In this document: in pieces, positions 5,737 through 56,870 of the stretch
How the letters are laid out: every line of letters begins with the position of its first letter
Numbering within the stretch: position 1 is the first letter of the stretch
Assembly (NCBI GenBank): GCA_964343835.1
Contig: CAYFKR010000008.1
Location: 64,318-128,317, forward strand
Source of the DNA: an uncultured Fibrobacteraceae bacterium
GTDB taxonomy: Bacteria; Krumholzibacteriota; Krumholzibacteriia; LZORAL124-64-63
DNA: 64,000 bases
Direction of reading: 5' to 3'
Notes under the pieces: generated by a model
What the model was told of the DNA's origin: nothing
The model's database searches: none
Seen by the model: the letters and a program-made list of their open reading frames with translations, nothing else
Program-made: the position numbers and the translations under genes

Positions 5737-6561
5737 TCAACCCCCCGACCCGATGGGGGTTCGGCCGAAGGAGATCAGCTCCATGGTCTCGGCCTTCACC
5801 TGGGGCGGCGGCTGGCGGCGGCGACCCGGCGGATCCACCTCCGAACGGGTCTCGGCGCGCTCCACGGCATGGACCACGCCCAGGAACGGCACGGTGTCGT
5901 GGAGGGCGACGGTGACGGTCCGCACGTGGATCTGCAGGAGTCGTCCCCTCGGCAGATCGAGGGTCGTGGTGTCCCGGGACGACAGCGCCAGTCCGTCGCA
6001 CATCAGGGTCACGCCGTCCACCCAGCGGGTCGTGGGATCCAGGGGTTCGCGGTCGTCGGGCGTGAAGCCGCCGGACAGGGCCAGGGACAGCAGGGGATCC
6101 TCGCGCCATTCGCGATCGGGGATCGGGCGGTCGCGGCCGCCGTCGCGCCGGACCACGTCGGAGACCCGGTCCCGCAGGTCGGCGTCGCCGTCGCGGGCGA
6201 GGGTGAAGGTCCACACGCCGTCGTCCAGGACATGGAGACCGTCGCGGTCCTCGGCCACCGGGGCCACCTCGAGGCGCCAGGCGTCGCCGCCGGCGTCGAG
6301 GCAACGGATGCGCAGGACGTCGTCGGTGCGGCGTCCCGCCTCGAAGGCGGACATGCGGTAGATGGCCCAGTCGCCGTCCGCGACGACGGGCCCCCGCGCC
6401 GAGGCGTCCCAGAGGGTGAAGAGGTCGAGGGCCTGGGAAGGGGCCGGCCAGGCCAGGACGGCCAGGGACAATGCGAGCACGGCCGGTCCCCGGAGGGACC
6501 GGCCGGCGTTCGCGGGCCGTCGGGCCCGGTCAGTGTGCGATCTTCTGCCAGTATTCGTCAT
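5737..6561 (-). CDS. hypothetical secreted protein
   Basis: Signal-like LRGPAVLALSLAVLAWPAPSQA, then a D/R-rich soluble domain. Start uncertain (ATG at 6561 or internal GTG). Confidence 0.4.
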   Translation of the reverse strand: MTNTGRRSHTDRARRPANAGRSLRGPAVLALSLAVLAWPAPSQALDLFTLWDASARGPVVADGDWAIYRMSAFEAGRRTDDVLRIRCLDAGGDAWRLEVAPVAEDRDGLHVLDDGVWTFTLARDGDADLRDRVSDVVRRDGGRDRPIPDREWREDPLLSLALSGGFTPDDREPLDPTTRWVDGVTLMCDGLALSSRDTTTLDLPRGRLLQIHVRTVTVALHDTVPFLGVVHAVERAETRSEVDPPGRRRQPPPQVKAETMELISFGRTPIGSGG

Positions 6562-7870
6562 AGTCGAAGTCCGGGCTGTTCTCCTCGTCGTGGCACTGCG
6601 TGCAGCTCTCGCGGGCGGCGGCCAGCCAGTCGCCGCTGCGGTCGTGCTCGGTACCGTAGCCGTGGCAGGCCTCGCACTGCACGTTGGAGAGGCGGTTGCG
6701 CGGCGGGCGGTCGTCGTAGCCGCCCTTGTAGAGGTATCCGGTGGTGTGGCAGACCAGGCACTCGGGGCTCTGGGCCTGGCCCTTGCGCGCCAGGGTCGTG
6801 AACGCGGCCTGGTGGCCGGTGTCGCGCAGGGTCTCCCACACGTCCATGTGGCACTTGCGGCATTCGCGCTCGGTCAGGAACGACTCGTCGTCGGAACCCT
6901 TGGTGGGCTGGTAGGGCCCGCGGGAGGCCAGGCGGAAGTCCTCCAGGTGCACCTTGAAGTCGTTCACGCGCTGGAGCATGACCGGGTCGTCGGCCATGGT
7001 CTCACCCAGTTCGGTGACGGTCACGTCGAAGGCCTTCAGGTGGCCGTCGGTGGCCAGGTCCACGTCCATGCGACCCACGTTGCGGCCCTCGAAGGAGGAG
7101 CCGATCAGGCAGGTACGGTCCACCACGCGCTCGGTGCGGTAGGGGCGGCGGCTGTGACCCACCAGGCAGACGTCGATGCCCTTCACGTCGCGCAGCAGCT
7201 GCTCCACCTTGGTGTCGCCCACGTGAGCCAGCACGATGACGTTCTGGGCTCCCTCGGCACGCATGCGCGGGATGAGCTCGCGGAGGGTCTCCACGGGATC
7301 GCCGATGGTGTAGATCTCGTCCTTGGCGCTCATGGTGGTGATGCGCTGCTGGGGATCCATCACCGAGCAGATGCCGAAGGTGAAGCCGGCCCGGTCGACC
7401 ATCAGGTACTCGGGCAGGATCAACTCGCCCGCCTCGTTGCGCACGTTGGCGCTGGTGAAGGGCAGCGAGTAGGTGTCGATCATCTCGCGGAGATAATCGA
7501 TGCCGTAGTTCAGGTCCTTCTCGCCGAGGGCGATGGCGTCGTAGCCGAACTCGCTGTGGACCTCGCAGAGGAAACGGGTCTGCTCGCGCTCCATGCGCGT
7601 GCGGGGGCCGAACATGTCGCCGCCGTCGAGCATGAGCACGGGCTTGCCGGTGTTCCAGATCTCGTCGAGGATCAAGGCACGTCGGGGCAGACCGCCCCGC
7701 TTGTTGCTCTTTCAGCCACAGGGCTCGATCTTGCCCCCCACGTCGCCGGTGTAGACCATGATCATCTGGGTCCAGGGGCCGTCGTCGGCCTGGTCGGCGA
7801 GGGCCGTCGCGGCGGCCAGGAGAGTCGCCAGGGCCAGCAGGACCGCGACCGGCAGTACGGATCGTCGCAT
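6530..7870 (-). CDS. signal peptide / degenerate 5'-nucleotidase-type metallophosphatase domain / tetraheme cytochrome c fusion, with an in-frame TGA (candidate selenocysteine) at about 7711-7713
   Basis: One continuous minus-strand frame: MRRSVLPVAVLLALATLLAAATALA (signal) ...YTGDVGGKIEPCG-TGA-KSNKRGGLPRRALILDEIWNTGKPVLMLDGGDMFG...AIALGEKDLNYG...VIVLAHVGD...CLVGHSRRP... Then four heme motifs: CRKCH, CLVCH, CEACH, CTQCH. A cytochrome c requires export, so the signal peptide upstream of the TGA must belong to the same polypeptide. Coordinates may be off by about 1 nt relative to the ORF track. Confidence 0.6.
7682..7698 (-). other. SECIS-like hairpin 12 nt downstream of the in-frame UGA (CGGGGC-GGUCU-GCCCCG)
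   Basis: Perfect 6-bp GC stem with apical loop GGUCU. It mimics the GCA-GGUCU-GCA apical element of the E. coli fdhF SECIS, at the canonical spacing from the UGA. Confidence 0.5.
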
Positions 7871-8490: not shown

Positions 8491-11400
8491 CTAGAAAAAG
8501 CCTCCGCCGGTGGATCCCATGCCCCCGCCGACGAGATCCTCACGTCCCTTGGTGACCTTGATGTCCGGGATCGCCTTCAACCGCACGACGAAACCGAACT
8601 GGGAATCCACCGAACTCACGGTGCGCTGGAAGCGCAGGGACCAGCAGTGCAGGTCCTTCTCCAGGCTCCACGACTGCTGCGACACGAGCCCCGTGTTCAG
8701 GTCGTAGCCGGACCGCCACGTGGCCTTCCAGGTGCGGGTCAGCGTAGCGCTGGCGCTGAGGGTCAGGCGCGCCGTGGTGTCGTCGGTGAGGTGGTTCCTG
8801 GAGAAACGGAGGCCGCCGCTGGCCCGCCAGGGGATGTAGCGGCCGCCCTCGGTCTCGTCGCGGCCGCCCTCGTCGGAGTCCTGGGTGAACTGGAGGGCGG
8901 GATCGTAGAGATCCCGTTCGCTGTCCTCGAACCCGTCGTCGAGCCACTCCTCATCCTCGTCCTCCCATTCGCCGTCGCCGAAGGGATCAGCGTCCGGGTC
9001 GGTTTCCTGGTCCAGGGAGTCGAGTTCGGCCAGGGCCGCGATGGCCTCATTGGTCTCGGGCTCGGGAACGACGATCTCGCCGCCCGTATCGATGCGACCC
9101 GAGACGCCGAGGTTGTAGTTGAAGCGCGTCGACGTGACGCGCATCTCGTACGGGTCGATGCTGCTGTTCACCGTGATCTGGGCGTTGCGGCTGCTGCCGG
9201 GCTTGAAGCGGAAGGTGCTCTGGATCGTGGACCAGCGGTCGTCCCGGTCCAGGTCCGGGTCGTAGCTCGTGCTCAGGTTCCAGTCGACGACGCCGTCCAG
9301 CTTCCGGAACGATTCGGTCGAGTCGGCGGACGCCTCGCCGTCGTCGGCGAATTTCAGGTCGATGCGGTTGCCCAGGGTGAAGCCGAAGCGCTGGTCCGCG
9401 GTCTGGGTGCCGCCGATCTCCGGTCGCCAGGAATGGCTCATGCTGAACTTCATGGTGTGGCGCATGCCGCGCAGCGACCCGATCCGCGGGTAGAAGAGGC
9501 CGTAGAGGGTGGTCGAGGCGCTGGAGTTCATGCCCAGACTCTTGGCGCTCTCCTCGACGAACTGGGTCGCGTCCGACAGGACGGTGTCGCCCTCGACGAC
9601 CTGGAAGAAGTCGCCGCTCCCCTCGTCGCGCTGCCAGTTGAAGCCCGCGCTCACGCCCGTCGACACGTTGAAGATCCACAGCCGCGGCGGCTTGATGCTC
9701 AGGGACAGGTTCCCGGACGCGTTGTCCTTGCGCAGGCTCGTGGTCTCCTTCTCGGTGCGGGTCGACGACGCCCTGTAGTTGTGGGACAGGTAGGTGTTGC
9801 GGAGCACGTTGCCCAGGAACGAGCCCTTCCTGCCGCCGCGCAGGGGCGGCATCAGCGCCCGGCTCTTGAACGACACGGAGAGTTGGGGGAAGTGCTGGGT
9901 CGAGACCAGGTTGTTGGTCAGGATGTTCTCGTCGCCGGCGTTGACGATCTCCTCGCGCTTGAAGGCCAGCGACCCGCTGAGGTTCTCCCAGTTTCGCCCG
10001 ATGCTCACGTTGGAGATCCGGCGCGGGTTCACGACCTGGGTGTAGTCGCCGAGCAGGTCCTCGCGCTCCACCGTGCTGCTGGACATCTTGAGGTCCGCGC
10101 TGAAGCGGTAGTCGTCCAGGAGCTGGGGCTGGTCGTGGCGCCACTGGAGCTGCCATTCCTTCGTCTGGGGACCGTTGCCCAGGGTCGTACGTCGCGAGTA
10201 GCGGACGCTGCCGTTGAAGGCGTCGCGGAGCACGTAGCGGTTGTTGATCTGCCAGGTGAGCTGGCGCCGCTCGTTGTAGTCGCCGAGGAACGAGAAATCG
10301 GTGTAGTCGTTGGTGGCCCAGTAGTAGCCCCAGTTGCGGATGTAACGGCCCGTGCGGCTGCCCCAGCCGGAGTCGAAGGTCGGAAAGTGGATTCCCGAAC
10401 GCCGGCCGGTCTCCAGGTTCTTGAAGTAGAAGGGCAGGGCCACCAGGGGCACCTCGCCGATCTTCATGACGATGGGCGCGGCCACCACCTTGTCGTCGAG
10501 CTGGATCTTCATCCTGTCGGCCCAGAAGTGGTAGTGGGGCTTGGACAGGTTGCAGGACGTCATGCGGCCGCCGCGGATCTTCAGGTCGCCGTCGCCGAAG
10601 CGCTTGATGTGCCGCCCCACGTAGAAGTACTCGTCCATGGTGGTGGCGCCGTCACGGACCGCGCCGGTGCGGTTGCCGAAGTCGTAGGCCATGTCCACGC
10701 CGGCGATCTTCTGGGCGCCGTCCACCAGCAGGGGCTGCTCCTCGGCATAGAGTTCTCGGGACTCGGTGTCCATGCGGATGTCGCCGGCCTTGAGGTCCAG
10801 GGTGCCGTACACGAGCTGCCCGTCGCCGCGGATGGCGATCTGACGCTTGCCGAGCTGAAAGATCCCCATGTCGCCGCTGTACTCCACGGTCTCGCGCAGG
10901 GAGGAGAAGTCGAGGCCGTCGCCGCCGGTGGTGTCGGCGGCGCCGAGGGCCAGGATCCGGCCGGCGGCCTCGGCCACGGCGCTGTCGCCCGCCGCGAACC
11001 CGCCCTCCGCCAGGGCGCCCAGCAGGACGAGGCCCATGGCCGGGTCCATCTCCGCGAGGCCGGAGCGGACGAGTTCCGGGTCGAGCGAAAGGGAGTCGGG
11101 AATCATGGCCGCCATGAGGGAGTCGGGACGGGCCGCCAGCAGGCTGTCCAGGGCCGCCACGGCCTCCTCGGCGGCCTCCTCCACCTCGTCCAGCCGCACG
11201 AAGGAATAGGTGCCCTTCATGGTCCCGCGCACGTCCACCTGGCGGATGCGGCGATCCTTGAAGCCGAGCACGATGGTGTCGCCCGAGACGTCGTTGTACG
11301 CCACCTCCTTGGCGGCTTCGGCGGGCACGTAGACGCTCCTCGCCCCGCCCACGACGAGGGAGCGCACGGGCTCGCCGTCGTCCATGTCCACGGTGATGGT

Positions 11401-12354
11401 GTCGCCGGTCAGGGTGTCGGTGTCGGGCAGGCCGCGGTACTGCGCGGCCAGTTCGGCGGGCTCCGTGTCCACCACGCTGGCGTCGCCCTCCAGTCGCACG
11501 CGCTTCATCTTCCCGTCCTCGTACCAGTACTCCACGGCCGAGGCGGAGAAGGTGCCGCCCTCCCCGTCGTCCATGACCGGGGGGCCGCCCGTGAGCCTCA
11601 TGCGCTCGCGGCCGAAGATGCGGGCGGTATCGGCCACCGCCACCGACTTGCCCTGGCGGATGCGGACGCTGTCCACCATCACCACGCGGTCGAGGTCGCG
11701 CAGGAAATCCATGACCCGCGCCTCGGCCAGCAGGGGGTCGGCGCCCTGGTCGCGGCTCTCCAGCAGGGGCTCGCGGTCCACGGTCATGCGGCCGCCGCCG
11801 CGGTCGAAGGTGGCGTGACCGCCCTTCACGACGCTGGCGGCCCCCGGCTCCACGAGGATCACGTTGCCCCATGCTTCGCCGGTGTCCGACTCCTCGTAGC
11901 TGGCGATGGAGTCGGCGTGGACCACGTAGTCGGGAGAGACCACCCGGGCATCGCGGATCAGCAGGAACATGTCGCCCTCGCGGCGCATCTCGGCGCGGCG
12001 GCTGGTGGCGATGCGGTCGGCGTCGACCAGGCGCACGTCGCCCTCGAAATCGGCGTCGCGGGTGCGGTCGTTGTAGAAGGCGGCGGCGCAGGTGAGGACG
12101 GCCTCGCCGCGGGTGGCGCGGACGTGGCCGAAGAAGTCGTACTCCTCGGTGTCCTCGTAGAAGAGGGCGGAGTCGGCGGCCACGGTCAGCGAATCGCGGA
12201 CGATCAGCACGTCGCCGTAGAGATGGGTCACGGGCTCGCCGTCGATGACGCGATGGACCATGCGCTCGGCCCGCGTGTCCACGACGGCGGGTTGCGCCGC
12301 CGCCAGGGAGGCGGCGAGCGTCATCGCGACGGCGATGCCGAAGAGGCCCCTCAT
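8491..12354 (-). CDS. very large outer-membrane protein, putative LptD/OstA-family (LPS-assembly) with internal acidic insertion
   Basis: Signal peptide MRGLFGIAVAMTLAASLAAAQ. N-terminal OstA-like beta-jellyroll repeats. Long C-terminal region rich in barrel-like alternating strands (W/Y/F, N/S/T). Acidic insertion DPDADPFGDGEWEDEDEEWLDDGFEDSERD. Confidence 0.4.
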   Translation of the reverse strand: MRGLFGIAVAMTLAASLAAAQPAVVDTRAERMVHRVIDGEPVTHLYGDVLIVRDSLTVAADSALFYEDTEEYDFFGHVRATRGEAVLTCAAAFYNDRTRDADFEGDVRLVDADRIATSRRAEMRREGDMFLLIRDARVVSPDYVVHADSIASYEESDTGEAWGNVILVEPGAASVVKGGHATFDRGGGRMTVDREPLLESRDQGADPLLAEARVMDFLRDLDRVVMVDSVRIRQGKSVAVADTARIFGRERMRLTGGPPVMDDGEGGTFSASAVEYWYEDGKMKRVRLEGDASVVDTEPAELAAQYRGLPDTDTLTGDTITVDMDDGEPVRSLVVGGARSVYVPAEAAKEVAYNDVSGDTIVLGFKDRRIRQVDVRGTMKGTYSFVRLDEVEEAAEEAVAALDSLLAARPDSLMAAMIPDSLSLDPELVRSGLAEMDPAMGLVLLGALAEGGFAAGDSAVAEAAGRILALGAADTTGGDGLDFSSLRETVEYSGDMGIFQLGKRQIAIRGDGQLVYGTLDLKAGDIRMDTESRELYAEEQPLLVDGAQKIAGVDMAYDFGNRTGAVRDGATTMDEYFYVGRHIKRFGDGDLKIRGGRMTSCNLSKPHYHFWADRMKIQLDDKVVAAPIVMKIGEVPLVALPFYFKNLETGRRSGIHFPTFDSGWGSRTGRYIRNWGYYWATNDYTDFSFLGDYNERRQLTWQINNRYVLRDAFNGSVRYSRRTTLGNGPQTKEWQLQWRHDQPQLLDDYRFSADLKMSSSTVEREDLLGDYTQVVNPRRISNVSIGRNWENLSGSLAFKREEIVNAGDENILTNNLVSTQHFPQLSVSFKSRALMPPLRGGRKGSFLGNVLRNTYLSHNYRASSTRTEKETTSLRKDNASGNLSLSIKPPRLWIFNVSTGVSAGFNWQRDEGSGDFFQVVEGDTVLSDATQFVEESAKSLGMNSSASTTLYGLFYPRIGSLRGMRHTMKFSMSHSWRPEIGGTQTADQRFGFTLGNRIDLKFADDGEASADSTESFRKLDGVVDWNLSTSYDPDLDRDDRWSTIQSTFRFKPGSSRNAQITVNSSIDPYEMRVTSTRFNYNLGVSGRIDTGGEIVVPEPETNEAIAALAELDSLDQETDPDADPFGDGEWEDEDEEWLDDGFEDSERDLYDPALQFTQDSDEGGRDETEGGRYIPWRASGGLRFSRNHLTDDTTARLTLSASATLTRTWKATWRSGYDLNTGLVSQQSWSLEKDLHCWSLRFQRTVSSVDSQFGFVVRLKAIPDIKVTKGREDLVGGGMGSTGGGFF

Positions 12355-13301
12355 CCCCCGTCGACCTTCTCCCGTGCCAGGGCCGCGGCGCCCATGGCCG
12401 CCGCCCGGTTGCCCAGGGCCGCGGCCACGATGGGCACCGCCCTGCTCCGCTCCCCGAGCACCACGCCCGGCGCCGTCTCGCGGCAGGGCCCGAGCAGCAG
12501 GTCGCCCGCACGGGCCACCCCGCCGCCGATGATCACCACGTCGGGGTCCAGGGCGTTGACCAGGTTGCCCACGGCGAGGCCGAGCATGCGCCCGGCGTCT
12601 CGGAACAGGCTCAGGGCGGCGGCGTTGCCGTCGGCGGCCAGGGCGGCCAGGGATTCCGGGGTCGGGTCGCCTGCGCAGAGGTCGGCCAGCGCCGGATCGG
12701 CGTCGGCGCGGCGCCGGGCCTCGGCCACCAGACCGCGGGCGCCGGCGTAGGCCTCCAGACAGCCGCGGTTGCCACAGCCGCAGGGCGGGCCGTCGGGGTC
12801 GAGGATCATGTGGCCCAGCTCTGCGGCGCCGCAGCGGTTGCCCACCACAAGCTGGCCGTGCACGACGATGCCGCCGCCCACGCCCGTGCCCAGGGCGAGC
12901 ATCACGAGGTCGTCAAGCCCGCGGCCGGCGCCGAAGCGCCACTCGCCGACGAGCGCGCCGTTGACGTCGTTGACCAGGGCGCAGGGTCGGCCGTCCCAGG
13001 TGTCGGCCACGGCGCCCGCCAGGTCCGAGTTCTCCCAGCCGAGCAGGTTGGGGGCCCGCCCCAGGGTGCCGGCGGCGGGGTCCACGATGCCGGCGCAGGC
13101 CAGGCCCACGGCGCGGACGCGGGGCCAGTCGTCGCCCAGACGCGTCGCGACCGCGTCGGCCAGGGCCGCGAGGGTCGCGTGGGCGCTGGCGGCGTCCGTG
13201 GGGATCTCCCCCTCGATGCGGACGGATCCGGCGTCGTCCACGGCCGCGTACTTGACCGCCGTGCCGCCGACGTCGGCGCCGATCACCAGGGTGTCGGTCA
13301 T
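12351..13301 (-). CDS. ROK-family sugar kinase (glucokinase / N-acetylglucosamine kinase-like)
   Basis: VIGADVGGTAVKYA ATP motif. ROK zinc motif GHMILDPDGPPCGCGNRGCLE. Start MTDTLVIG at 13301; 4-nt overlap with the downstream gene. Confidence 0.7.
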   Translation of the reverse strand: MTDTLVIGADVGGTAVKYAAVDDAGSVRIEGEIPTDAASAHATLAALADAVATRLGDDWPRVRAVGLACAGIVDPAAGTLGRAPNLLGWENSDLAGAVADTWDGRPCALVNDVNGALVGEWRFGAGRGLDDLVMLALGTGVGGGIVVHGQLVVGNRCGAAELGHMILDPDGPPCGCGNRGCLEAYAGARGLVAEARRRADADPALADLCAGDPTPESLAALAADGNAAALSLFRDAGRMLGLAVGNLVNALDPDVVIIGGGVARAGDLLLGPCRETAPGVVLGERSRAVPIVAAALGNRAAAMGAAALAREKVDGG

Positions 13302-14710
13302 GGATCCATCCTTCCGCTCAGGACGTCCGACGCAGGGCGGACCGTCCGGGTCTCCTCCAGGTCGCGCACCCCGAGACGCCAGAGGGCGTCTGCCACGAGG
13401 AAGCACGAGCCGGTGCACAGCACGGCGTCGCCGGGGCCGGCGCGCCGGGCCAGGTCGTCGAGGGCGTCGTCGAGGTCGCGATGGACGACCGCGTCATTGT
13501 CTCCCGCGAGTCCCCAGCGGTCCATCAACGATTCCAGCTCTTCCGGGTTCCGCGATCGCGGCAGGGCCACCGGGGCGCACACCACCGAATCGGCCTCGCG
13601 GAGCAGCCGGCCCGCGGCGTCGCCGGGGTCCTTGTCGTGCATGCCGCCGAACAACACATGGCGCCGGCCCTCGCACGGGCGCCCGAGGAACGTCCGCAGC
13701 ACGCCCTCGAGGGCCTCGGGGTTGTGGGCCGTGTCCACGAACCAGTCGGGCCCCGACAGCACCTGCTGGAAGCGGCCGGGCAGGAAGAGCCGACGCAGGG
13801 ATGCGGCGGCGTCCGTCACGTCCGGCACCACGCCGCGCCCGGCCAGCTCCTCCAGGGCCATCAGGGCCAACCCGGCGTTGCGGCGCATCACGGGCGAGCC
13901 GAGGTCCGGCAGGCCGTCGTGCACGCGGGTGCGGGTGGTCAGGCGCCAGCCGTCGCCGTCGTCGTCGATGCGGGTCAGCTCGTCCAGGAAGTGGGCCGGG
14001 GCGCCGGCGGCCACGGCGGCGGCGAAGGCTCGGGACTTCAGGTCGCCGGTCAGGGCAGTGAAGAAAGGCACGCCTTCCTTGAGCAGCCCCAGCTTCTCGT
14101 CGGCGATCTCCTCCACCGTCTCCCCCAGGATGTGCTGGTGGTCCAGGGAGACGCCGGTCAGCAGCACCGCCGCGGGGGGCAGGGCGTTGCTGGCGTCGAG
14201 CCGCCCGCCGAGGCCCGTCTCGCAGCATAGAACGTCCACGCCGGCGTCTCGGCTCAGGCCGACGGCGGCGGCGGTGAGGGTCTCGAACCAGCTGGACTCG
14301 TGGCGATCCACCGACGGGCGGAGGGATTCGACCATGGACCGGAAGGCGTCCGGATCCACGGGCCGGTCGTCGAACGTGAGCCGCTCGTGGACGCGCAGCA
14401 GATGGGGGCTGGTGTAGCAGGCCACCTTGAGGCCGGCGTCCTGGAGCAAGCGGGCCAGCATGCGCGTGGTGCTGCCCTTGCCGTTGGTGCCTGCGGTGAC
14501 GAGGGTCGTCAGCCCCTGCTCGGGATGACCCATGTCTTCGAGCAGGCCGCGGACCCGTCCCAGGCCGGGGCGGATGCCCTTGCGGTTCAGGGCGAAGAGC
14601 CAGCGCGTGACGGGGCAGTCGGCGGCGAAGGGAGGGCGCGCGTCGACGCGCACCCCGGGCTCGCCCGGGAAGACGGGGTCGGCGGGAGTCCCGCGGGAGG
14701 GATCGCTCAT
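13298..14710 (-). CDS. folC: folylpolyglutamate synthase / dihydrofolate synthase (Mur-ligase family)
   Basis: P-loop VTAGTNGKGST and the Mur ligase central/C-terminal pattern. Conserved accD-folC gene order. Confidence 0.8.
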   Translation of the reverse strand: MSDPSRGTPADPVFPGEPGVRVDARPPFAADCPVTRWLFALNRKGIRPGLGRVRGLLEDMGHPEQGLTTLVTAGTNGKGSTTRMLARLLQDAGLKVACYTSPHLLRVHERLTFDDRPVDPDAFRSMVESLRPSVDRHESSWFETLTAAAVGLSRDAGVDVLCCETGLGGRLDASNALPPAAVLLTGVSLDHQHILGETVEEIADEKLGLLKEGVPFFTALTGDLKSRAFAAAVAAGAPAHFLDELTRIDDDGDGWRLTTRTRVHDGLPDLGSPVMRRNAGLALMALEELAGRGVVPDVTDAAASLRRLFLPGRFQQVLSGPDWFVDTAHNPEALEGVLRTFLGRPCEGRRHVLFGGMHDKDPGDAAGRLLREADSVVCAPVALPRSRNPEELESLMDRWGLAGDNDAVVHRDLDDALDDLARRAGPGDAVLCTGSCFLVADALWRLGVRDLEETRTVRPASDVLSGRMDP

Positions 14711-14713
14711 GGG

Positions 14714-15595
14714 TCAGTGGCGGAACGGCTGGCGCATCGAGACGTCCCGGCCGTCGGTGAACCAGTGCAGCACCTCGGCCAGGCGGTCGTGCAGGTCACG
14801 GCGGTGGACGATCATGTCGATCATGCCGTGTTCCAGCAGGAACTCCGACGACTGGAAGCCCTCGGGCAGCTCGCTGTTGATGGTCTGCTCGATCACGCGG
14901 GGACCGGCGAAGCCGATCAGGGCGCCGGGCTCGGCCATGATCACGTCGCCCAGCTGGGCGTAGCTCGCGGTCACGCCGCCGGTGGTCGGGTTGGTCAGGA
15001 TGGAGATGAAGGGCAGGCCCTCCTCCCGCAGCCGGTTGAGCATGGCGCTGGTCTTGGCCATCTGCATCAGCGACAGCAGCGACTCCTGCATGCGGGCGCC
15101 GCCGGAGCGGGACAGGATGATCGCCGCGGTGCGGTCGGCCACGCAGTCCTTGAGCATCCGCGCCAGTTTCTCGCCCACCACCGAGCCCATGCTGCCGCCC
15201 ATGAACGTGAAGTCCATGATGCCGAGGCCCACGGGCATGTCGTCGATCTCGCCGCGGCCCACCACGACGGCGTCGTCGCGGCCGGTCTTCTTGAGGCTGG
15301 CCTTGATGCGGTCGTCGTAGGACTTGGAGTCCTTGAAGCCCAGGGGGTCCCGGGAGGTGATGCCGCGGTGGGTCTCGTTCCACGAGCCCTCGTCCAGCAG
15401 CAGCTCCAGGTACTGGTCGGTGGAGATCCGCAGGTGGTGCTGGCAGTTGCCGCAGACCCAGAGGCTCCGGGACAGCTCCCTGTGGTAGAGCACGTCGCCG
15501 CACGAGGGGCACTTGCTCCACAGGTTGTCCGGGATCTCCTTCTTCTGGGTGGTGAGGGCCTTGATGCCCTTCTTGGCCTGTGTCAACCAGGACAC
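14714..15595 (-). CDS. accD: acetyl-CoA carboxylase carboxyltransferase beta subunit
   Basis: N-terminal zinc ribbon CPSCGDVLYHREL...CGNCQHH and the carboxyltransferase domain FMGGSMGSVVGEK. Confidence 0.85.
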   Translation of the reverse strand: MSWLTQAKKGIKALTTQKKEIPDNLWSKCPSCGDVLYHRELSRSLWVCGNCQHHLRISTDQYLELLLDEGSWNETHRGITSRDPLGFKDSKSYDDRIKASLKKTGRDDAVVVGRGEIDDMPVGLGIMDFTFMGGSMGSVVGEKLARMLKDCVADRTAAIILSRSGGARMQESLLSLMQMAKTSAMLNRLREEGLPFISILTNPTTGGVTASYAQLGDVIMAEPGALIGFAGPRVIEQTINSELPEGFQSSEFLLEHGMIDMIVHRRDLHDRLAEVLHWFTDGRDVSMRQPFRH

Positions 15596-15716: not shown

Positions 15717-16199
15717 TCAGGACAGGTGACCTTCGGCTTCGAGGTCGAGGGTCAGGATCAGGGCATCCTCGCCGTTGTCCGCATAATAATGCGGACGCCT
15801 GCCCCGCTCCCTGAATCCATGGCGCCAATAGAACGATCTCGCCGGCGCGTTGGATACCCTGACTTCGAGGGTGGCGGAGGTGCATCCCGAACCGACGGCT
15901 TCGGCCAATCCGGCCTCCAGCAGCAGCGTCCCGAATCCCCGACGCCGGCCGCCCGGCGCCACGCCCAGGTTCACGATGTGGTACTCGTCCGCCACGATCC
16001 AGGCCATCAGATAGCCTTCCACGACGCCCGCGACCTCCAGGGCGAGGGGACGACGCCGGTCGTCCGCGATCAGCTCGGGGATCAGGGCTCCAATGGGCCA
16101 GGGGTCCTCGAAGCAGAGCTGCTCGAGGGTGAGGATCCGGGGCAGGTCGTCGGGGCGCCCGCGGCGCACCGTCACCCCGTCGCCCGTCACGGGGACTCT
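15717..16199 (-). CDS. rimI: ribosomal-protein-alanine N-acetyltransferase (GNAT)
   Basis: GNAT acetyl-CoA motif LGVAPGGRRRGFGTLLL. Follows tsaE-tsaB as in the canonical cluster. Start approximate (GTG near 16199). Confidence 0.6.
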   Translation of the reverse strand, partial: RVPVTGDGVTVRRGRPDDLPRILTLEQLCFEDPWPIGALIPELIADDRRRPLALEVAGVVEGYLMAWIVADEYHIVNLGVAPGGRRRGFGTLLLEAGLAEAVGSGCTSATLEVRVSNAPARSFYWRHGFRERGRRPHYYADNGEDALILTLDLEAEGHLS

Positions 16200-16987
16200 T
16201 CTCCGGGCCGTCGGTCCTCCATGGCGGCGAGGCCTTCCTCGGCGTCGGCAGGCGTCAGGTCCAGCCCCCTCTTGACCTCGGCGTCGGACGCCCGCAGGTA
16301 CAGGGGCTGAAGCGCGAAGGCGTCGGTGTCGGCCAGGGGGCCGTCGGCGAGGCTCGCCGCCCAGGCCGTGGCCGGCGCCGTGGCCGGGTGCGACGTCGAC
16401 CAGCAGCGCAGCACGGGCTCGCCCTTTGCGGCCAGCTCCGGGCGCAGGGTCTCGCCCTCCCCCAGCAGCAGCGGAGCGCCGCTGCCGGCGAAGCAGGGGG
16501 CGTCCGGGTCGGGGACAGCGGCGAGCACCGCCTCCCACCAGGCGTCGTACGAGCGCGCCGCATCGGCGACGACGGGCGCCACCCAGTCGCCGTCGCGGCG
16601 GTAGACCCCGGCGAAGACCTCGCCCCTGCGGGCGTCCAGGGCCGGCACGGCCCACTCGCGGTCCGCATGCTCCAGGAGCATGGCCGCGGCCATGGCCTCC
16701 AGGGTCGACACGCCCTTCAGGGGCACGCCCAGGGCGTAGGCCAGGGCTTTCGCCGTGGCCACGCCGATGCGCACGCCCGTGAAGCTGCCGGGTCCCCGGG
16801 TCACCGCCAGGACGTCCACGTCCGCCAGGGCCGTGCCGTGCTCCTCCAGCATGGCCTCCATGACGGGCAGCAGGGCGTCGGCGTAGCTGCCCATGACGTT
16901 GTGGGGTCGGTAGACCAGCACCTCGCCGTCGCGGGCGAGGGCGAAGCGTCCCCAGGGGGTGGCGGTGTCGAAGGCAAGGGCGAGCAC
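16187..16987 (-). CDS. tsaB: tRNA t6A biosynthesis protein TsaB (YeaZ)
   Basis: MLALAFDTATPWGRFALARDGEVL... N-terminal Kae1/YeaZ pattern (LALDTST type). Sits beside tsaE and rimI. Confidence 0.75.
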   Translation of the reverse strand: MLALAFDTATPWGRFALARDGEVLVYRPHNVMGSYADALLPVMEAMLEEHGTALADVDVLAVTRGPGSFTGVRIGVATAKALAYALGVPLKGVSTLEAMAAAMLLEHADREWAVPALDARRGEVFAGVYRRDGDWVAPVVADAARSYDAWWEAVLAAVPDPDAPCFAGSGAPLLLGEGETLRPELAAKGEPVLRCWSTSHPATAPATAWAASLADGPLADTDAFALQPLYLRASDAEVKRGLDLTPADAEEGLAAMEDRRPGEESP

Positions 16988-16988
16988 G

Positions 16989-17495
16989 TCAGTCCTCCTC
17001 CATCAGGGCGCGCCAGGGAGCGGGCACGTCGGGACGGCCCAGCAGGCGCCACTCGCGGTCGTCGGGACCGTCGCCGGGGGTGACCAGGAGCTCCAGGCGG
17101 TCGCGGAGCCAGGGCACCAGGGGATCGGGCCATTCCACGAGCAGCACGGCGGAACCGGCGTCCACGTCGTCCAGCATGGCTTCCACGCCGATGTCGTGGA
17201 GATCGTCCTCCGCGGTCAGGCGGTAGAGATCCAGATGGTGCACCGTGAGGCGGCCGACGTAGGTGTTGACCAGGGTGAACGTGGGCGAGTTGACCTCGGG
17301 ATCGTCCACCTCGAGGCCCCGGCTCAGGCCCTGGACGAAGAGGGTCTTGCCCGCACCGAGAGGCCCCCACAGCAGGATGGTCTCGCCGCCGCGCAGCAGC
17401 GAGGCGGCTTCCATGCCGAAGGCGAAGGTCTCGTCCGGCGACGCGCTGCGGCGACGCAGGGGGAACGAGGAGGGGTCGGGCAGGGGGTGCTCCAC
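16989..17495 (-). CDS. tsaE: tRNA t6A biosynthesis ATPase TsaE (YjeE)
   Basis: Walker A LWGPLGAGKTLFVQG. Signature NSPTFTLVNTY...HHLDLYRL. Confidence 0.75.
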   Translation of the reverse strand: MEHPLPDPSSFPLRRRSASPDETFAFGMEAASLLRGGETILLWGPLGAGKTLFVQGLSRGLEVDDPEVNSPTFTLVNTYVGRLTVHHLDLYRLTAEDDLHDIGVEAMLDDVDAGSAVLLVEWPDPLVPWLRDRLELLVTPGDGPDDREWRLLGRPDVPAPWRALMEED

Positions 17496-17504
17496 GTCCG
17501 GCTC

Positions 17505-19058
17505 CTAGCGGGGCTTCATCACCACGAACGGCACGATCATCTCCTCCATGCTGATGCCCCCGTGCTGGAAGCTGTTGCGATAGAGACGCTCGTACTCGTG
17601 GAAGTTGGTGGGGTAGACGAGGTAGTCGTTCCCCGTGGTGATGGCGTAGTTCTCGATGGCCGACTGGCGCGGCAGCATGTAGTCCTCGGGATCCTTCATC
17701 AGGAACACGTGCTTTTCGTCCACGCCCAGGTTGTCGCCGTACTTGTAGCGCACGTTGGTGCTGGTCTCGCGGTTGGCCTTGACCGTCGTGGCGCGATCAC
17801 AGAACACGGAGCCGTGGTCCGTGGTGATGATCACCGTGCAGTCGCGGCGGGCGAGGGTCTTGAGCACGTCGAACAGGTTCGAATGCTCGAACCAGCTGCG
17901 CATCAGGGAGCGGAAGGCCGGCACGTCGGGCGCCAGTTCCTTGAGGATGGTGGACTGGGACCGACCGTGGGCCATGATGTCCAGGAAGTTGTAGACCGCA
18001 GCCACCAGGCGCACGTCGTCCAGGGAGCCCACGTTACGGCTCAGGTCGTCGGTGTCCCGGGCATCGAAGACCTTGTAGTACTTGTAACTGTCGGCGGCCG
18101 GCGATCCCAGGCGCTTGAGCTGTTCGCCCAGCAGTTCGGCCTCGTGGGCGTTCTTGGAGTGCTGCTGACGGCTCGAGCCTCGCCACCAGTCGGGATAGCG
18201 CGACGCGATCTCGCGGGGGTACAGCCCGCTGAACAGTGCGTTGCGGGCGAAGGGCGTGGCCGAGGGCAGGATGGACCAGTAGTGGCGGCGGTCCAGGTGG
18301 TAGAAGGGTTCCAGCAGGCTTTCCACGAAGCGCCACTGATCCAGCCTCATGCAGTCGATGACGATCCAGAAGAGCTGGCTCGAGCCCTCCACCTCGGGTG
18401 CGACCCAGGTGCGGAAGAGATCGGGGCTGAGCAGGGGCGCGCCGTCGGCTCCGTTGACCCAGCCGGCGTAGTTCTCACGGACGTGGCGCACGAAGGCACG
18501 ATTGGCCTCGGCGTGCATCTCGTCGTGGCTGGCCAGCAGGCCGTGGTCGCCGTCGGCGAAGAGATCCAGCTCCCACTGCACGAGGTCGTTGTACAGGGAC
18601 TCCCAGTCGGCCACGCCGGCGGCGGTGCCGATGCGGTCCTGGGTGGCCATGAAGTGGCTCGTGAAGTCGCGGCTGAGCTGCTCGCCGCGGATGCGGCGGC
18701 CCTCCAGCAGGCGCTTCAGGGCCGAGACGATCTGCAGGGGCGACACCGGCTTGACGAGGTAGTCGTCGATGCGCTTGCCGATGGCGCGGTTCATGAGGTC
18801 CTCTTCCTCGCTCTTGGTGATCATGATCACCGGCACCGACTCGCGGACCTTCTTGAGCTCGGCGAGGGTCTCGAGGCCCGTCATGCCGGGCATCATCTCG
18901 TCCAGGAGGATGGCGTCGTAGGGCGTGCCCCGGAGCTTCTCCACGGCGTCCTGCCCGTTGGTCACGCCGTCCACCTCGTAGCCCTTGTCGCCGAGGTACA
19001 CGAGGTGGGAGCGGAGCTCCTCGATCTGGTCGTCAACCCACAGGATCTTGAAGGCCAC
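17505..19058 (-). CDS. porX: PorX-like response regulator: CheY-like receiver + PglZ (alkaline-phosphatase-superfamily) domain
   Basis: Receiver KILWVDDQ...DAILLDEMMPGMTGLE...LVKP. C-terminal PglZ-type domain (...IITTDHGSVF...). Length 517 aa, matching PorX (about 518 aa). Confidence 0.65.
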   Translation of the reverse strand: MAFKILWVDDQIEELRSHLVYLGDKGYEVDGVTNGQDAVEKLRGTPYDAILLDEMMPGMTGLETLAELKKVRESVPVIMITKSEEEDLMNRAIGKRIDDYLVKPVSPLQIVSALKRLLEGRRIRGEQLSRDFTSHFMATQDRIGTAAGVADWESLYNDLVQWELDLFADGDHGLLASHDEMHAEANRAFVRHVRENYAGWVNGADGAPLLSPDLFRTWVAPEVEGSSQLFWIVIDCMRLDQWRFVESLLEPFYHLDRRHYWSILPSATPFARNALFSGLYPREIASRYPDWWRGSSRQQHSKNAHEAELLGEQLKRLGSPAADSYKYYKVFDARDTDDLSRNVGSLDDVRLVAAVYNFLDIMAHGRSQSTILKELAPDVPAFRSLMRSWFEHSNLFDVLKTLARRDCTVIITTDHGSVFCDRATTVKANRETSTNVRYKYGDNLGVDEKHVFLMKDPEDYMLPRQSAIENYAITTGNDYLVYPTNFHEYERLYRNSFQHGGISMEEMIVPFVVMKPR

Positions 19059-20301
19059 GCTGGGGCTCCTCTCCGGGAATCGTGATCAGGAAGGTGGTGC
19101 CGCCGGGACCGGTCTCCTCCACGGAGATCCGCCCGGCGTGATACTGCACGACGATGCGCCGCACGAGTGCGAGGCCCATGCCCCAGCCGCGCGACTTGGT
19201 GGTGAACCCGGGCTCGAAGATCCGGTTCCGCTTGCCGGGCGCGATGCCGCCGCCCGTGTCGCGGACGCGGATGCGGACCGAGCCGCCGGGGCCGTCGTCC
19301 AGGATCACGTCGATGCGGCCGCTGCGGTCCTTGAGGGCGTCGATGCCGTTCTTGATGAGGTTCTCCAGCACCCATTCCATCAGGTCGCGGTTATAGCGGC
19401 AACGGCGCGAGGTCCGACAGTCGCACACCAGCTCCACGCGCCCGCCCAGATGGGGCAGCCGACGCTCGAAATAGGCCACGCTGGAGCGCACGGCGTCGGC
19501 GATGTCCGTATCCTGGAGCTGGGGCTTCGATCCGATCTGGCTGAAGCGCTCGCTCACCTTGCCCAGGCGCTTCACGTCGCGGTCCAGCTCCGTGACGATC
19601 TCGTCGTCGCCGTGACGGTCGTTGAGCACGGCCACCCAGCCCAGGATCGCCGTGATGGGCGTGCCCAGCTGGTGGGCCGTCTCCTTGGCCATGCCCGCGA
19701 AGAGGCGCTGCTCCTCGCCGTCGCGTTTGACGCTCAGGGCCCAGGCGATGGCCAGGAAGAACACGCCCAGCAGGGCCAGCTCCGCCCAGGGCAGCCAGCG
19801 GATCTGGCGCCCCACCGCCGAGTGCCCGTAGTGGAGGGTCAGCATGCGCTGCCCCGTCGACGGGCTGGTGATGGCGAAGGGCTCGTTGATGGCGTCGAAC
19901 TCGTCGACCAGCTCCAGGATACGGTCGATCTCCGGGGAGTTGCCCCCCTCGGGGTTCACTCCCAGCAGCGTGAGCTGCTGGTCGGGCATGGGGATGCCCA
20001 CCACCGGGCCGTTCCACAGCAGCGGCCGCCCCTGGTTGTCGGTCACGATGAAGGGGACCTCGAGCCGCCGCGTCTTGTCCATGACGTCGCGCAGCACGTC
20101 GTTCTCGCCCTGGCCGAGGGACATGCTCGCGAAGTGGGAAAGCAGCCACGTGCTGAGCCGCGACTGCTCCTCCACGCGGTCGGCCACCCGGAAGGAGATG
20201 GCCCCCACCGAGAACACGATGACGGCGGTCCCACCCAGGACGAAGGCCGCGAAGAGCTGACGCTTGCGGACGAAGTTGAGCGTCCGGGGCCACCAGGTCA
20301 T
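19033..20301 (-). CDS. sensor histidine kinase (two TM segments, periplasmic loop; HisKA + HATPase), cognate partner of the PorX-like regulator
   Basis: H-box HQLGTPITAILGW, N-box ENLIKNGIDAL, G-boxes DTGGGI / GWGMGLALV. TM helices flank a periplasmic segment of about 140 aa. 26-nt overlap with the response-regulator gene. Confidence 0.75.
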   Translation of the reverse strand: MTWWPRTLNFVRKRQLFAAFVLGGTAVIVFSVGAISFRVADRVEEQSRLSTWLLSHFASMSLGQGENDVLRDVMDKTRRLEVPFIVTDNQGRPLLWNGPVVGIPMPDQQLTLLGVNPEGGNSPEIDRILELVDEFDAINEPFAITSPSTGQRMLTLHYGHSAVGRQIRWLPWAELALLGVFFLAIAWALSVKRDGEEQRLFAGMAKETAHQLGTPITAILGWVAVLNDRHGDDEIVTELDRDVKRLGKVSERFSQIGSKPQLQDTDIADAVRSSVAYFERRLPHLGGRVELVCDCRTSRRCRYNRDLMEWVLENLIKNGIDALKDRSGRIDVILDDGPGGSVRIRVRDTGGGIAPGKRNRIFEPGFTTKSRGWGMGLALVRRIVVQYHAGRISVEETGPGGTTFLITIPGEEPQRGLQDPVG

Positions 20302-20326: not shown

Positions 20327-21586
20327 TCAGCCGATGAATTCGTCGCCGCCCATGTACGGCCTCAGGGCCTCCGGCACCCGGATGCGGCCGTCGGCGGTCT
20401 GGAAGTTCTCCATGATCGCCACCAGGACGCGGGGCAGGGCCAGTCCCGAGCCGTTGAGGGTGTGGACGAATCCCTTGGCGTCGCCGCCCTTGAAGCGGAT
20501 GCCGGCGCGGCGGGCCTGGAAGTCGCCGAAGTTGCTGCACGACGACACCTCGAGCCACTGCTCCACGCCCGGCGACCAGACCTCCAGGTCGTAGCACTTG
20601 GCCGCGGCGAAGCTCAGGTCGCCCGTCGCCAGGGCCAGCACCCGGTACGGCAGTTCGAGGCGGCGCAGGATCTCCTCGGCGTCGTCGGTCAGGCTCTCGA
20701 GCGTGTCCCAGGACGCCTCGGGGGCGGTGAACTGCACCATCTCCACCTTGTGGAACTGGTGCACGCGGAGCAGGCCGCGGGTGTCCTTGCCCGCGGCGCC
20801 GGCCTCGCGGCGGAAGCAGGGCGAGAAGGCCACGTACTTCACGGGCAGGCGGTCGGCCTCGAGGGTGGACCGGCGATGGATGTTGGTGACCGAGACCTCG
20901 GCCGTGGGGATCAGGTAGAGGTCGTCGACGGCGCAGTGGTACATGTCGTCAGCCATCTTCGGGAGCTGCCCGGTGCCGGTCATGGCCTCGGGGTTCACGA
21001 GGTAGGGGACATTGACCTCCTCGTAGCCCTGCTCCAGGTGGACGTCGATCATGAAGTTGATCAGGGCGCGCTCCAGGCGGGCGCCGGCACCCTTGAGCAG
21101 GGTGAAGCCCGAGCCGCTCATGCCCACGGCGGCCTCGAGGTCCATGATGCCCAGGGCGGCGCCGATGTCCCAGTGGGGCTGCACGTCGAAGTCCGGGTCC
21201 AGGGGCTCGCCCCAGGACCGCACCTCCACGTTGTCCTCCTCCCCGCCCACCGGCACGCTCTCGTGCGGGATGTTGGGGATGCGCATGTAGAGGGCGTCGA
21301 CCTCGGCCTCGGCGCCGTCGGCGGCCGCCTTCAGGTCCTTGATGCGGGCCGAGACGGCTTTCATCTCGGCGATGGCGGCGTCGGCGTCTCCGCCGGACTT
21401 GCGGGCCTCGGCGATGGCCTTGTTGGCCTTGTTGGCCTCGGCCTGGAGGGCCTCGACCTCCTGGAGCGCGGCCCGGCGGGCTGCGTCCTTCTCGTAGTAG
21501 GCGTCGACGTCGACGCTCTCGCGCTTGGCGGCGACGGCGGCCGTGACCGCCTCCCTGTTGTCGCGCAGAAACTTGCGATCCAGCAC
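20327..21586 (-). CDS. serS: seryl-tRNA synthetase
   Basis: N-terminal coiled coil, then class II motifs (FRREAG, GLLRVHQF, GSGLALPR). Confidence 0.9.
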   Translation of the reverse strand: MLDRKFLRDNREAVTAAVAAKRESVDVDAYYEKDAARRAALQEVEALQAEANKANKAIAEARKSGGDADAAIAEMKAVSARIKDLKAAADGAEAEVDALYMRIPNIPHESVPVGGEEDNVEVRSWGEPLDPDFDVQPHWDIGAALGIMDLEAAVGMSGSGFTLLKGAGARLERALINFMIDVHLEQGYEEVNVPYLVNPEAMTGTGQLPKMADDMYHCAVDDLYLIPTAEVSVTNIHRRSTLEADRLPVKYVAFSPCFRREAGAAGKDTRGLLRVHQFHKVEMVQFTAPEASWDTLESLTDDAEEILRRLELPYRVLALATGDLSFAAAKCYDLEVWSPGVEQWLEVSSCSNFGDFQARRAGIRFKGGDAKGFVHTLNGSGLALPRVLVAIMENFQTADGRIRVPEALRPYMGGDEFIG

Positions 21587-50385: not shown

Positions 50386-52113
50386 CTACGGAGTCTCCAC
50401 GTCGAGGTACGGGATGCAGAGGTACGGCGCCTGCTCCTGGCCGGGCCTCTCCACCCAGCGGTCGTCGATGGACGCCCGCACCGGGGAGTGGGCCTTGATG
50501 TAGGCCTCGAAGGCCTCAGCCGTGGTGATCTGGGTCAGTTCGATGCGGTCGGCCGGGATCGTGGTCAGGAAGTCCAGGCCGCTGTTGCCCTCCATGAGGA
50601 AGGAGGTGCAGACCACCCGGTATTCCTTCTCGAGATCCAGGGGCTCGCCGTTGACGAGCAGGGCGCAGCAGCGGTCCCAGTCGGGGCGGCTGCGGTCGAA
50701 GACCACCTGCAGGCCCGAGGTGCACAGGCCGCCCGAGTTGCCCCGGACCTTCCGCTCCACGATGCGGCGGATCATGGAGCCCTTCATGGTCACGAGCACC
50801 AGCTCGTTGCCGAAGGGCAGCACGCTGAAGACGTCGCGGGCGGTGATGTCGCCGGCCGGGACGTCGGCGCGCAGGCCGCCGGTGTTCTGGAACGAGAAGT
50901 CGGCGTCGAAGTGGGCGCGCATGGCGTCGGTCACGAGGTTCCCCATGACGCTGTTGGCCCCGCCGCGGGTCAGGTTGACCGACGCGGAACCGATGACGCG
51001 GCCCATCTCGGCCTCGGTCATCTCGATGTACGGGCGCAGGGCCTCGGTCATCTCCTCGTGGGGCCAGAGCTCGTCCTCGAAGAGGGTGACCAGGGTGCCG
51101 CGGTCGTGGGGACCGGCCCAGTCGATGATCGTGCCGCTGTCGCGGTGGATCGTGAGGATGGCGTGGCCCACGCTCGAACCGTTGCCGTAGCTCTCGAAGC
51201 ACATGGTGTGGTTCACGGGGTCGATCCAGGGCTCCGGATAGCCGCGATGGGTGTGGCCGCCCACGGCGAAGTCGATGCCCGACACCGCGTTGACCAGCTC
51301 CATGAGGTTCATGACGCCGGACTGGACGTAGCCGTAGCCGCCGCCCGCGTCGCCCTGGGTGTCCTCGGCCTCGGCCTGGCTGCCCACGATGCGGGCCCAG
51401 CCGGCATCGGGGTCGTAGGGCAGGCCCTCGTGGATCAGCAGGCCCACGATGTCCACGCCGTCGGCCCGGAGCTCGTCGCGCCAGTGCTCGATGGTCGGGG
51501 CCATGGGCTCGAACGACAGGCCCCGGATGTTGTCCGGGAACGCCATGTGCTCGGTGGCCGGCGTGCAGATGCCGATCAGGCCGAGGCGCAGGCCGCCCAC
51601 GTCGAACTCGATGGTTGGCTCGCACCAGTCCACCACCTCGCCCGTGGACTCCTCCACGATGTTGGCGCAGATCCACGGCGCGTCGGTGGAGCGGGCCAGC
51701 TTCTCGCAGTTGTCACGGCCCATGTCGAAGTCGTGGTTGCCGGGCACGATGGCGTCGTAGCCGATGGTGTTGAAGAACTCCACCACCGCCTCGCCCTTGG
51801 TCTTGGTGCCCACCGGCGTGCCCTGGAAGGTGTCGCCGGCGTCCAGGAGCATCACGTACTCCCCGGCCGCGGCGGCCCTCTCGCGCACCTCCTCCACGTA
51901 GGTCATCATGGATGCGCCGCCGCCCAGGGGGGGCGGGAAGGCGGGGTTCATGAAGCGCGCCATCTCGGGCGCGATGTGGCCGTGGACGTCGTTGGTCCAC
52001 ATCAGGTGCAGGGTCACCATGCCGTCGTCGTCGGCTGCCGCGGCTCCCGTCGCCCCGAGGACGACGAGGGCCAGGGCCAGCAGGACGGCGCGTGTTCCGT
52101 TCATGGTTCTCAT
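50386..52113 (-). CDS. secreted bifunctional-type 5'-nucleotidase / metallophosphatase (UshA-like)
   Basis: Signal peptide MRTMNGTRAVLLALALVVLGATGAAAA. Intact motifs NDVHGH, DAGDTFQG, GNHDFD, GGHTHRGY, plus the C-terminal nucleotide-binding domain. ATG at 52113 after GGAGGAGAC. Confidence 0.8.
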   Translation of the reverse strand: MRTMNGTRAVLLALALVVLGATGAAAADDDGMVTLHLMWTNDVHGHIAPEMARFMNPAFPPPLGGGASMMTYVEEVRERAAAAGEYVMLLDAGDTFQGTPVGTKTKGEAVVEFFNTIGYDAIVPGNHDFDMGRDNCEKLARSTDAPWICANIVEESTGEVVDWCEPTIEFDVGGLRLGLIGICTPATEHMAFPDNIRGLSFEPMAPTIEHWRDELRADGVDIVGLLIHEGLPYDPDAGWARIVGSQAEAEDTQGDAGGGYGYVQSGVMNLMELVNAVSGIDFAVGGHTHRGYPEPWIDPVNHTMCFESYGNGSSVGHAILTIHRDSGTIIDWAGPHDRGTLVTLFEDELWPHEEMTEALRPYIEMTEAEMGRVIGSASVNLTRGGANSVMGNLVTDAMRAHFDADFSFQNTGGLRADVPAGDITARDVFSVLPFGNELVLVTMKGSMIRRIVERKVRGNSGGLCTSGLQVVFDRSRPDWDRCCALLVNGEPLDLEKEYRVVCTSFLMEGNSGLDFLTTIPADRIELTQITTAEAFEAYIKAHSPVRASIDDRWVERPGQEQAPYLCIPYLDVETP

Positions 52114-52147
52114 GGTCTCCTCCCGGATCGTCGGTCCGACGACCAAT

Positions 52148-53431: not shown

Positions 53432-53447
53432 TCTATCCTTCTCCCTA

Positions 53448-56857: not shown

Positions 56858-56870
56858 GGCTCGCGTCCTC

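Follow-up and report, generated by a model that had tools for sequence, protein, structure and literature searches.

The closest described relatives of the gene pair considered here, which lies in a 64,000-nucleotide stretch of DNA from an uncultured Fibrobacteraceae bacterium (contig CAYFKR010000008.1; the whole stretch is referred to below as the window), are porX and porY of Porphyromonas gingivalis (PGN_1019 and PGN_2001). They encode a response regulator and a sensor kinase associated with the secretion system known as type IX (T9SS), lie approximately 1000 genes apart, and are treated as orphans in the PorXY literature. Purified PorY and PorX interact, and phosphate is transferred from PorY to PorX in vitro (PMC4800418, PMC5005315), with activation by the C-terminal domain of PorA (PMC4800418, PMC12152298). 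PorY has been described as a transmembrane (TM) segment, a periplasmic loop of about 115 amino acids (aa), a second TM segment and a phospho-acceptor histidine some 20 residues later, with no HAMP domain (PMC5005315). PorX cleaves cyclic and linear oligonucleotides (PMC9757075), and this phosphodiesterase activity has been described together with binding to PorL and SigP (PMC9757075, PMC5005315). It is reported to be restricted to the FCB group and to co-occur with the T9SS (PMC9757075).

In the window, genes for both proteins stand side by side and overlap by 26 nucleotides (nt), within a string that reads serS-porY-porX-tsaE-tsaB-rimI-accD-folC. We consider this to be an orthologous PorY-PorX two-component system made as a translationally coupled pair, a reading to which we assign a probability of roughly 78%. 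Both proteins are ordinary orthologues of the known system and do not represent a new kind of system; in architecture they are like their P. gingivalis counterparts, to which each is homologous from end to end. The source organism is apparently a Krumholzibacteriota-like member of the FCB superphylum. Proteins identical to both are on record as called genes of a public contig (P0001, P0121), their homologues at 51-69% identity carry the source labels Candidatus Krumholzibacteriia or Krumholzibacteriota, and the closest genome loci in our PorX scan bear the label "uncultured Fibrobacteraceae".

A PorY-family kinase gene overlapping porX

The string, in coding order, is made up as follows:

20327-21586, minus strand: serS (seryl-tRNA synthetase; Pfam Seryl_tRNA_N and tRNA-synt_2b), heading the string
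19033-20301, minus strand: PorY-family sensor histidine kinase, 422 aa, ATG start after GAGGAGAGG
19033-19058, minus strand: 26 nt common to the 3' end of the kinase gene and the 5' end of porX
17505-19058, minus strand: porX (receiver-PglZ), 517 aa, GTG start after GGAGAGGAG
16989-17495, minus strand: tsaE (P-loop protein of the UbK/YjeE family; Pfam TsaE, 108.9 bits)
16187-16987, minus strand: tsaB (Pfam TsaD-family match)
15717-16190, minus strand: rimI-like GNAT acetyltransferase, GTG start
14714-15595, minus strand: accD, tail of the string
13298-14710, minus strand: folC, tail of the string, after accD

The genes are tightly packed, with gaps of 25 nt between serS and the kinase, 9 nt between porX and tsaE and 1 nt between tsaE and tsaB, and a 4-nt overlap (GTGA) of the tsaB stop with the rimI start. 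The junctions from serS to rimI are too short to hold a promoter or terminator; a simple promoter scan of the string found no sigma-70-like site, and a simple terminator scan found 3 candidates against 1.8 expected, which is chance level. Every start codon in the string is preceded by a GGAG-rich ribosome-binding sequence, in a window of approximately 70% G+C. For porX, this Shine-Dalgarno-like sequence (GGAGAGGAG) sits within the coding sequence of the kinase, and the combination of a 26-nt overlap with an internal ribosome-binding site supports coupling of the two genes. The overlap is similar in the closest relative (about 25 nt). We took the GTG at 19058 as the porX start because it is the only one that leaves the receiver domain intact, and PorX homologues start at the same MAF/MAY position. 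An initial annotation of this DNA, made from its letters alone, had described the same overlap, the same gap to serS and a place inside a serS...tsaE-tsaB-rimI string; our measurements and gene calls agree with it and continue the string into accD and folC, while the 10 nt it gave between regulator and tsaE become 9.

By its profile and structure matches, the regulator is PorX. It scores 634 bits (cut-off 300) on the NCBIfam equivalog NF052313 (T9SS_RR_PorX), residues 4-517 aligning with positions 2-513 of the 513-position model, and matches the solved PorX structures of P. gingivalis (7pv7, E 4e-128) and Flavobacterium johnsoniae (8ted, E 6e-123) over their full length. Pfam identifies both Response_reg (85.6 bits) and PglZ (62.4 bits), in keeping with the PorX-like architecture that had been proposed for this 517-aa protein, and the domain order is receiver, helical bundle and PglZ/alkaline-phosphatase-like phosphodiesterase domain. 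Three residues of note by comparison with P. gingivalis PorX are placed as follows:

18900-18902, minus strand: Asp53 codon, phospho-acceptor, equivalent to Asp58 of P. gingivalis PorX
18837-18839, minus strand: Ser74 codon, at the position of P. gingivalis PorX Tyr79 by alignment
18255-18257, minus strand: Thr268 codon, catalytic threonine, equivalent to P. gingivalis PorX Thr272, the residue altered in the mutant structure 7pvk

Asp53 and Thr268 are each invariant in all 82 sequences of a PorX alignment drawn from across the FCB superphylum, and the PglZ-domain residues D235, D360, H364, D414, H415 and H499 are unchanged with respect to both solved PorX proteins. F. johnsoniae PorX (8ted, 8p6f), which is about 38% identical, has the same domain order and invariant active-site residues; in contrast to the window, porX stands without an adjoining kinase in every Flavobacteriales locus sampled. 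A PglZ protein of the BREX type was considered and rejected, since the regulator reaches 79 bits on NF033449 (BREX_PglZ_3; cut-off 250) and no other BREX genes occur in the window. The C-terminal PglZ/alkaline-phosphatase-like fold is common to BREX-3 PglZ and window PorX, whereas the N-terminus of the latter is a phospho-receiver.

For the kinase, no curated PorY model exists in NCBIfam, and authentic PorY matches only generic kinase families, so that the P. gingivalis sequence itself was needed. Supplements of the PorXY papers yielded primers only; we therefore took the cloning primer of Vincent et al. 2016 (PMC5005315 supplement), which has exact matches in five metagenome contigs. On these lies the gene for PorY, 395 aa long, whose ends and His193 agree with those published. 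BLASTP aligns residues 1-411 of the window kinase with residues 1-391 of this PorY (30% identity, 191 bits, E 4e-61). When PorY was searched against all open reading frames of 85 comparison loci and the window, it scored 181-220 bits on all kinases adjoining porX and 155-211 bits on two orphan relatives, whereas seven unrelated kinases encoded there gave 26-67 bits; among solved kinase structures, the best match to the window kinase reaches 65 bits. The top five NCBIfam kinase families come in the same order for PorY as for the window kinase. Pfam recognises HATPase_c (80.1 bits), with HisKA below threshold (22.6 versus 26.9 bits), and a hydropathy scan gives this layout:

20188-20256 (approximate), minus strand: first TM segment, residues ~16-38
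19798-20187, minus strand: periplasmic sensor domain, residues 39-168
19726-19797 (approximate), minus strand: second TM segment, residues ~169-192
19672-19674, minus strand: His210 codon, predicted autophosphorylation site, in the H-box KETAHQLGTPITAILGW

His210 follows the second TM segment by 18 residues with no HAMP domain between, lies in an invariant column aligned with PorY His193, and completes a topology that agrees with the published PorY layout. In a 13-sequence alignment that spans at least seven lineages and includes PorY, the H-box residues K206, A209, H210, Q211, G213, T214, P215 and W222 are invariant. Judged by this end-to-end alignment, the common topology and the separation of PorY scores (181-220 versus 26-67 bits), the kinase is a PorY-family member and PorY orthologue, not a mere neighbouring kinase, and the two genes make up a genuine linked PorXY pair. 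This bears out the initial annotation, which had seen a PorX-type regulator genetically coupled to a classical periplasmic-sensing kinase: the coding sequences overlap, the kinase aligns with PorY along its length, and two membrane segments flank a loop of approximately 130 aa ahead of the HATPase_c domain.

The sensor loop of the kinase is only distantly similar to that of PorY and somewhat longer (about 130 versus 115 aa). No NCBIfam model matches the N-terminal 260 residues, and a profile made from the loops of close relatives gave no hit on that of PorY, for which reason we make no claim of direct sensor homology. An iterative search started from the PorY loop does reach the window loop in register, by way of an Ignavibacterium kinase, which makes homology of the two loops likely. 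Pro83 of the periplasmic domain is invariant in the same 13-sequence alignment, and Pro93, Trp96 and Tyr158 are nearly so. An AlphaFold2 model of the loop (mean pLDDT 80.8) has a mixed alpha/beta fold for which Foldseek returned weak PAS/PDC-like matches only, and the N-terminal sensor region (residues 1-205) defines a narrow family, being common to only 73 cluster representatives among 1.84 billion proteins. As a separate observation, the porX-linked PorY-family kinases of Latescibacterota and Gemmatimonadota occupy frames of approximately 600-680 codons (L014 4100-5959; L033 4095-5921; L036 4097-5920; L065 3947-5983), and the match of the PorY loop to them is split over two or three segments, so that their periplasmic domain may have been enlarged or duplicated.

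Compared with canonical operon-encoded systems such as EnvZ-OmpR and PhoR-PhoB, the window pair is similar in having adjacent, coupled genes and a two-TM kinase that senses the periplasm. It differs in that the kinase comes first and lacks a HAMP domain, the output domain of the regulator is an enzymatic PglZ and not a DNA-binding domain, and the pair sits among housekeeping genes instead of target genes. We would expect the kinase to sense a periplasmic cue through its PAS/PDC-like loop and to autophosphorylate at His210, from which the phosphoryl group would pass to Asp53 of PorX. By analogy with P. gingivalis, phosphorylated PorX would then dimerise and tune the T9SS through protein partners (an ECF sigma factor and the motor protein PorL/GldL) together with its PglZ phosphodiesterase site. 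The nature of the signal, and T9SS control as the output in this organism, are parts of this scheme that we infer.

Linkage of porY and porX across FCB phyla

Comparison loci came from a scan with a PorX alignment, with one genome taken per species and the best 80 of at least 600 loci retained. We called a locus linked if porX had a PorY-family kinase gene on its own strand, no more than 200 nt upstream. Of the 73 loci whose upstream sequence was long enough to judge, 17 are linked, and they represent at least six phylum-level groups: all four Krumholzibacteriota-like loci, two of Eisenbacteria (with four more in which the kinase is 0.9-5.5 kb away), four of Ignavibacteria, the sole locus of Zixibacteria, all three of Latescibacterota, the sole locus of Gemmatimonadota, and two that are unclassified. 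In those four additional Eisenbacteria loci the kinase is still within 6 kb of porX, and the remaining 52 evaluable loci have no linked one. The latter include all sampled Flavobacteriales, Bacteroidales, Sphingobacteriales, Balneolales/Rhodothermales, Cloacimonadota and Calditrichota and most Ignavibacteriaceae; among the sampled Bacteroidia, no porX-linked PorY-family kinase was found. The full string from serS to folC is common to five of the linked groups, Latescibacterota and Gemmatimonadota excepted, and the position of serS relative to porY-porX is kept in L001-L005, L012, L016, L018, L019, L031, L032, L034 and L038.

Being common to several FCB phyla, the linkage is probably ancestral and not a rarity. 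Most simply, these loci suggest that the genes were linked in an ancestor and that linkage was lost several times, the orphan genes of P. gingivalis being derived; on the simplest reading of an ancestral linkage, the pair was separated in Bacteroidia, Cloacimonadota and many Ignavibacteria. The contrast that had been drawn between unlinked genes in Porphyromonas and a linked pair here thus holds (approximately 1000 genes apart versus a 26-nt overlap), while the linkage, real as it is, turns out not to be peculiar to this genome. Our literature search found no report of a linked porXY pair outside Bacteroidia, although one may still have been published. For a field that has regarded both genes as orphans and debates whether PorY is the kinase of PorX, the presence of a PorY orthologue gene next to and ahead of porX in six or more phylum-level FCB groups, in some cases overlapping it, provides independent comparative evidence of an ancient and genuine pairing. 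The linked loci are, moreover, unambiguous cognate pairs, which could be used for covariation analysis of the interface and for the study of conserved periplasmic motifs.

Adjacency could also have a more trivial origin. Since the entire string is syntenic, kinase and PorX might be neighbours through inherited gene order only, with the kinase serving some other regulator and PorX phosphorylated by acetyl phosphate, by another kinase or by TsaE/UbK; acetyl phosphate and other kinases have indeed been raised for P. gingivalis PorX in the literature. We regard this as very improbable. No linked locus has any other regulator gene beside the kinase, the coding overlap and internal ribosome-binding site of the window pair suggest coupled translation, and both the kinase H-box and receiver helix 1 of PorX are strongly conserved from the window organism to Porphyromonas, whose PorY binds PorX and phosphorylates it in vitro (PMC4800418, PMC5005315).

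Three further observations concern PorY-family kinases and their surroundings. In Eisenbacteria loci L017, L028 and L049 (and L041), serS still adjoins porY, but other sequence, 0.9-5.5 kb of it, has come to lie between porY and porX; these loci look like a halfway state in the separation of the two genes. Lone PorY-family kinases with no regulator alongside occur at L081 (6001-7224) and L084 (6001-7191), one of them in Cloacimonadota and the other in a metagenome; both lie among housekeeping genes and adjoin genes with a T9SS sorting domain. An orphan PorY is therefore not peculiar to Porphyromonas. Lastly, full-string loci of the Ignavibacteria type carry a second kinase directly after folC, which is not PorY-like (43-67 bits to PorY):

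L012, 9129-10535: second kinase
L016, 11178-12632: second kinase
L018, 11131-12630: second kinase
L031, 11171-12631: second kinase
L032, 8484-9905: second kinase

tsaE beside porX, and secretion genes of the window

The most conserved neighbour of porX is not the kinase gene. Of the 74 loci that could be evaluated for this, 62 have tsaE at most 300 nt downstream of porX, and they come from all phylum-level groups in the sample. In Bacteroidia, porX-tsaE is all that is left of the string, with an alanine-dehydrogenase-like gene after tsaE and a variable gene upstream, and these two genes hence form the invariant core of the synteny. In P. gingivalis, ubK1, which encodes a kinase of the TsaE/YjeE family, lies directly downstream of porX as tsaE does in the window, and has been found there in 81 strains (PMC13241743, 2026). 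UbK1 is reported to phosphorylate PorX on Tyr79 in vitro, and this modification can be separated from secretion (PMC13241743). All four motifs listed for UbK proteins (Walker A, SPT/S, HxDxYR and EW; PMC13241743) occur in the TsaE of the window, namely GPLGAGKT at residue 44, SPT at 70, HLDLYR at 87 and EW at 121. The target residue does not share this conservation: the equivalent of Tyr79 is Ser74 in window PorX and is tyrosine in only 1 of 82 PorX sequences, that of P. gingivalis, the commonest residues being Ser, Asn, His and Gly. Any conserved coupling of PorX to TsaE would consequently not run through Tyr79. Having first been taken as plain housekeeping context, tsaE is better described as a UbK1 homologue and the most constant neighbour of porX, and its near-universal adjacency extends the 2026 observation on P. 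gingivalis strains to the whole superphylum. Our literature search found no mention of porX-tsaE adjacency beyond P. gingivalis, which may nevertheless have been published.

One might go further and see in porY-porX-tsaE an ancestral FCB three-gene signalling cassette in which PorX takes input from both flanking kinases, PorY and TsaE/UbK; we offer this only tentatively and think it doubtful as it stands. On this view, selection would have held porX next to tsaE in nearly all lineages, including those where serS, porY, tsaB, rimI, accD and folC have dispersed, and PorX would be functionally coupled to TsaE/UbK or to the t6A machinery. A related possibility bears on output. The pair could be a genuine PorY-PorX system whose main job is other than the T9SS, relaying a signal from the envelope either to the turnover of oligonucleotides or nanoRNA, by way of the PglZ phosphodiesterase, or to TsaE/UbK and translation housekeeping. 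Several facts would suit such a role: the operon neighbours are all housekeeping genes, only the porX-tsaE adjacency survives everywhere, UbK1 acts on PorX separably from secretion (PMC13241743), PorX cleaves oligonucleotides both cyclic and linear (PMC9757075), and no T9SS gene in the window exceeds its curated threshold. On the other hand, PorX and the T9SS are reported to co-occur throughout the FCB group (PMC9757075), the orphan PorY-family kinases of other phyla adjoin T9SS sorting-domain genes, and in the window itself the gene for a large protein whose C-terminus resembles a sorting domain is followed directly by that of a PorV/PorQ-like barrel. We judge a principal function outside secretion unlikely, while giving it more weight than mere inheritance of gene order.

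The secretion-related genes of the window are these:

56871-60629: 1252-aa protein with lamin-tail and CBM56 domains, directly upstream of the PorV/PorQ-like gene; its C-terminus reaches 19.5 bits with FlgD_ig and, with the type A sorting-domain model (cut-off 23), 16 bits
55970-56878: full-length match to the PorV/PorQ family model, 68 bits (cut-off 90)
52148-53581: BamG/FadL/PorV-like barrel

The T9SS-type cargo and PorV/PorQ-like genes noted in the initial annotation thus have matching candidates, all of which fall below the curated cut-offs. Of the large window proteins that were scanned, none was recognised as a core T9SS component, and our literature search found no report of a T9SS in Krumholzibacteriota. 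The published co-occurrence of PorX with the T9SS (PMC9757075) is support of an indirect kind only.

Several points weigh against a PorY-PorX system that controls secretion in this organism. In P. gingivalis, the mutant phenotypes of porX and porY overlap poorly, and because of this difference PorY as the kinase of PorX is debated, some authors doubting that it is the physiological one (PMC9757075, PMC11320123). Both co-transcription of porY with porX and phosphotransfer between their products are steps that we infer for the window pair. Between the window kinase and PorY, direct similarity of the sensor loops is weak, intermediates being needed to join them, and the T9SS genes of the window are sub-threshold only (68 versus 90 and 16 versus 23 bits). 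Furthermore, as top scorers of the scan, the 80 comparison loci over-represent relatives of the query. We nonetheless retain an orthologous, translationally coupled PorY-PorX pair as the best explanation.

Other genes of the window

The barrel genes listed above belong to an envelope gene cluster on the minus strand (50386-60629), which comprises the 1252-aa protein, the PorV/PorQ-like barrel and the BamG/FadL-like barrel and also encodes an 843-aa protein of the ComEA helix-hairpin-helix type and a 707-aa 5'-nucleotidase. This cluster may be a locus for the scavenging of extracellular DNA or nucleotides.

Two further genes, both on the minus strand, deserve mention. The first (6530-7870) encodes a probable selenoprotein, with an in-frame TGA at 7712-7714 preceded by a signal peptide and the context E-P-C-G-TGA, and a hairpin directly past the TGA. 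Read through, it scores 255 bits on the UshA-like (seleno)protein PCGU family (cut-off 275), and the fragment after the TGA alone gives 210.6 bits; a multihaem cytochrome c domain is fused to it at the C-terminal end. The second (8491-12912) encodes an LptD-like outer-membrane protein with LptD_2 and OstA-like domains, which is unusually long at 1473 codons.

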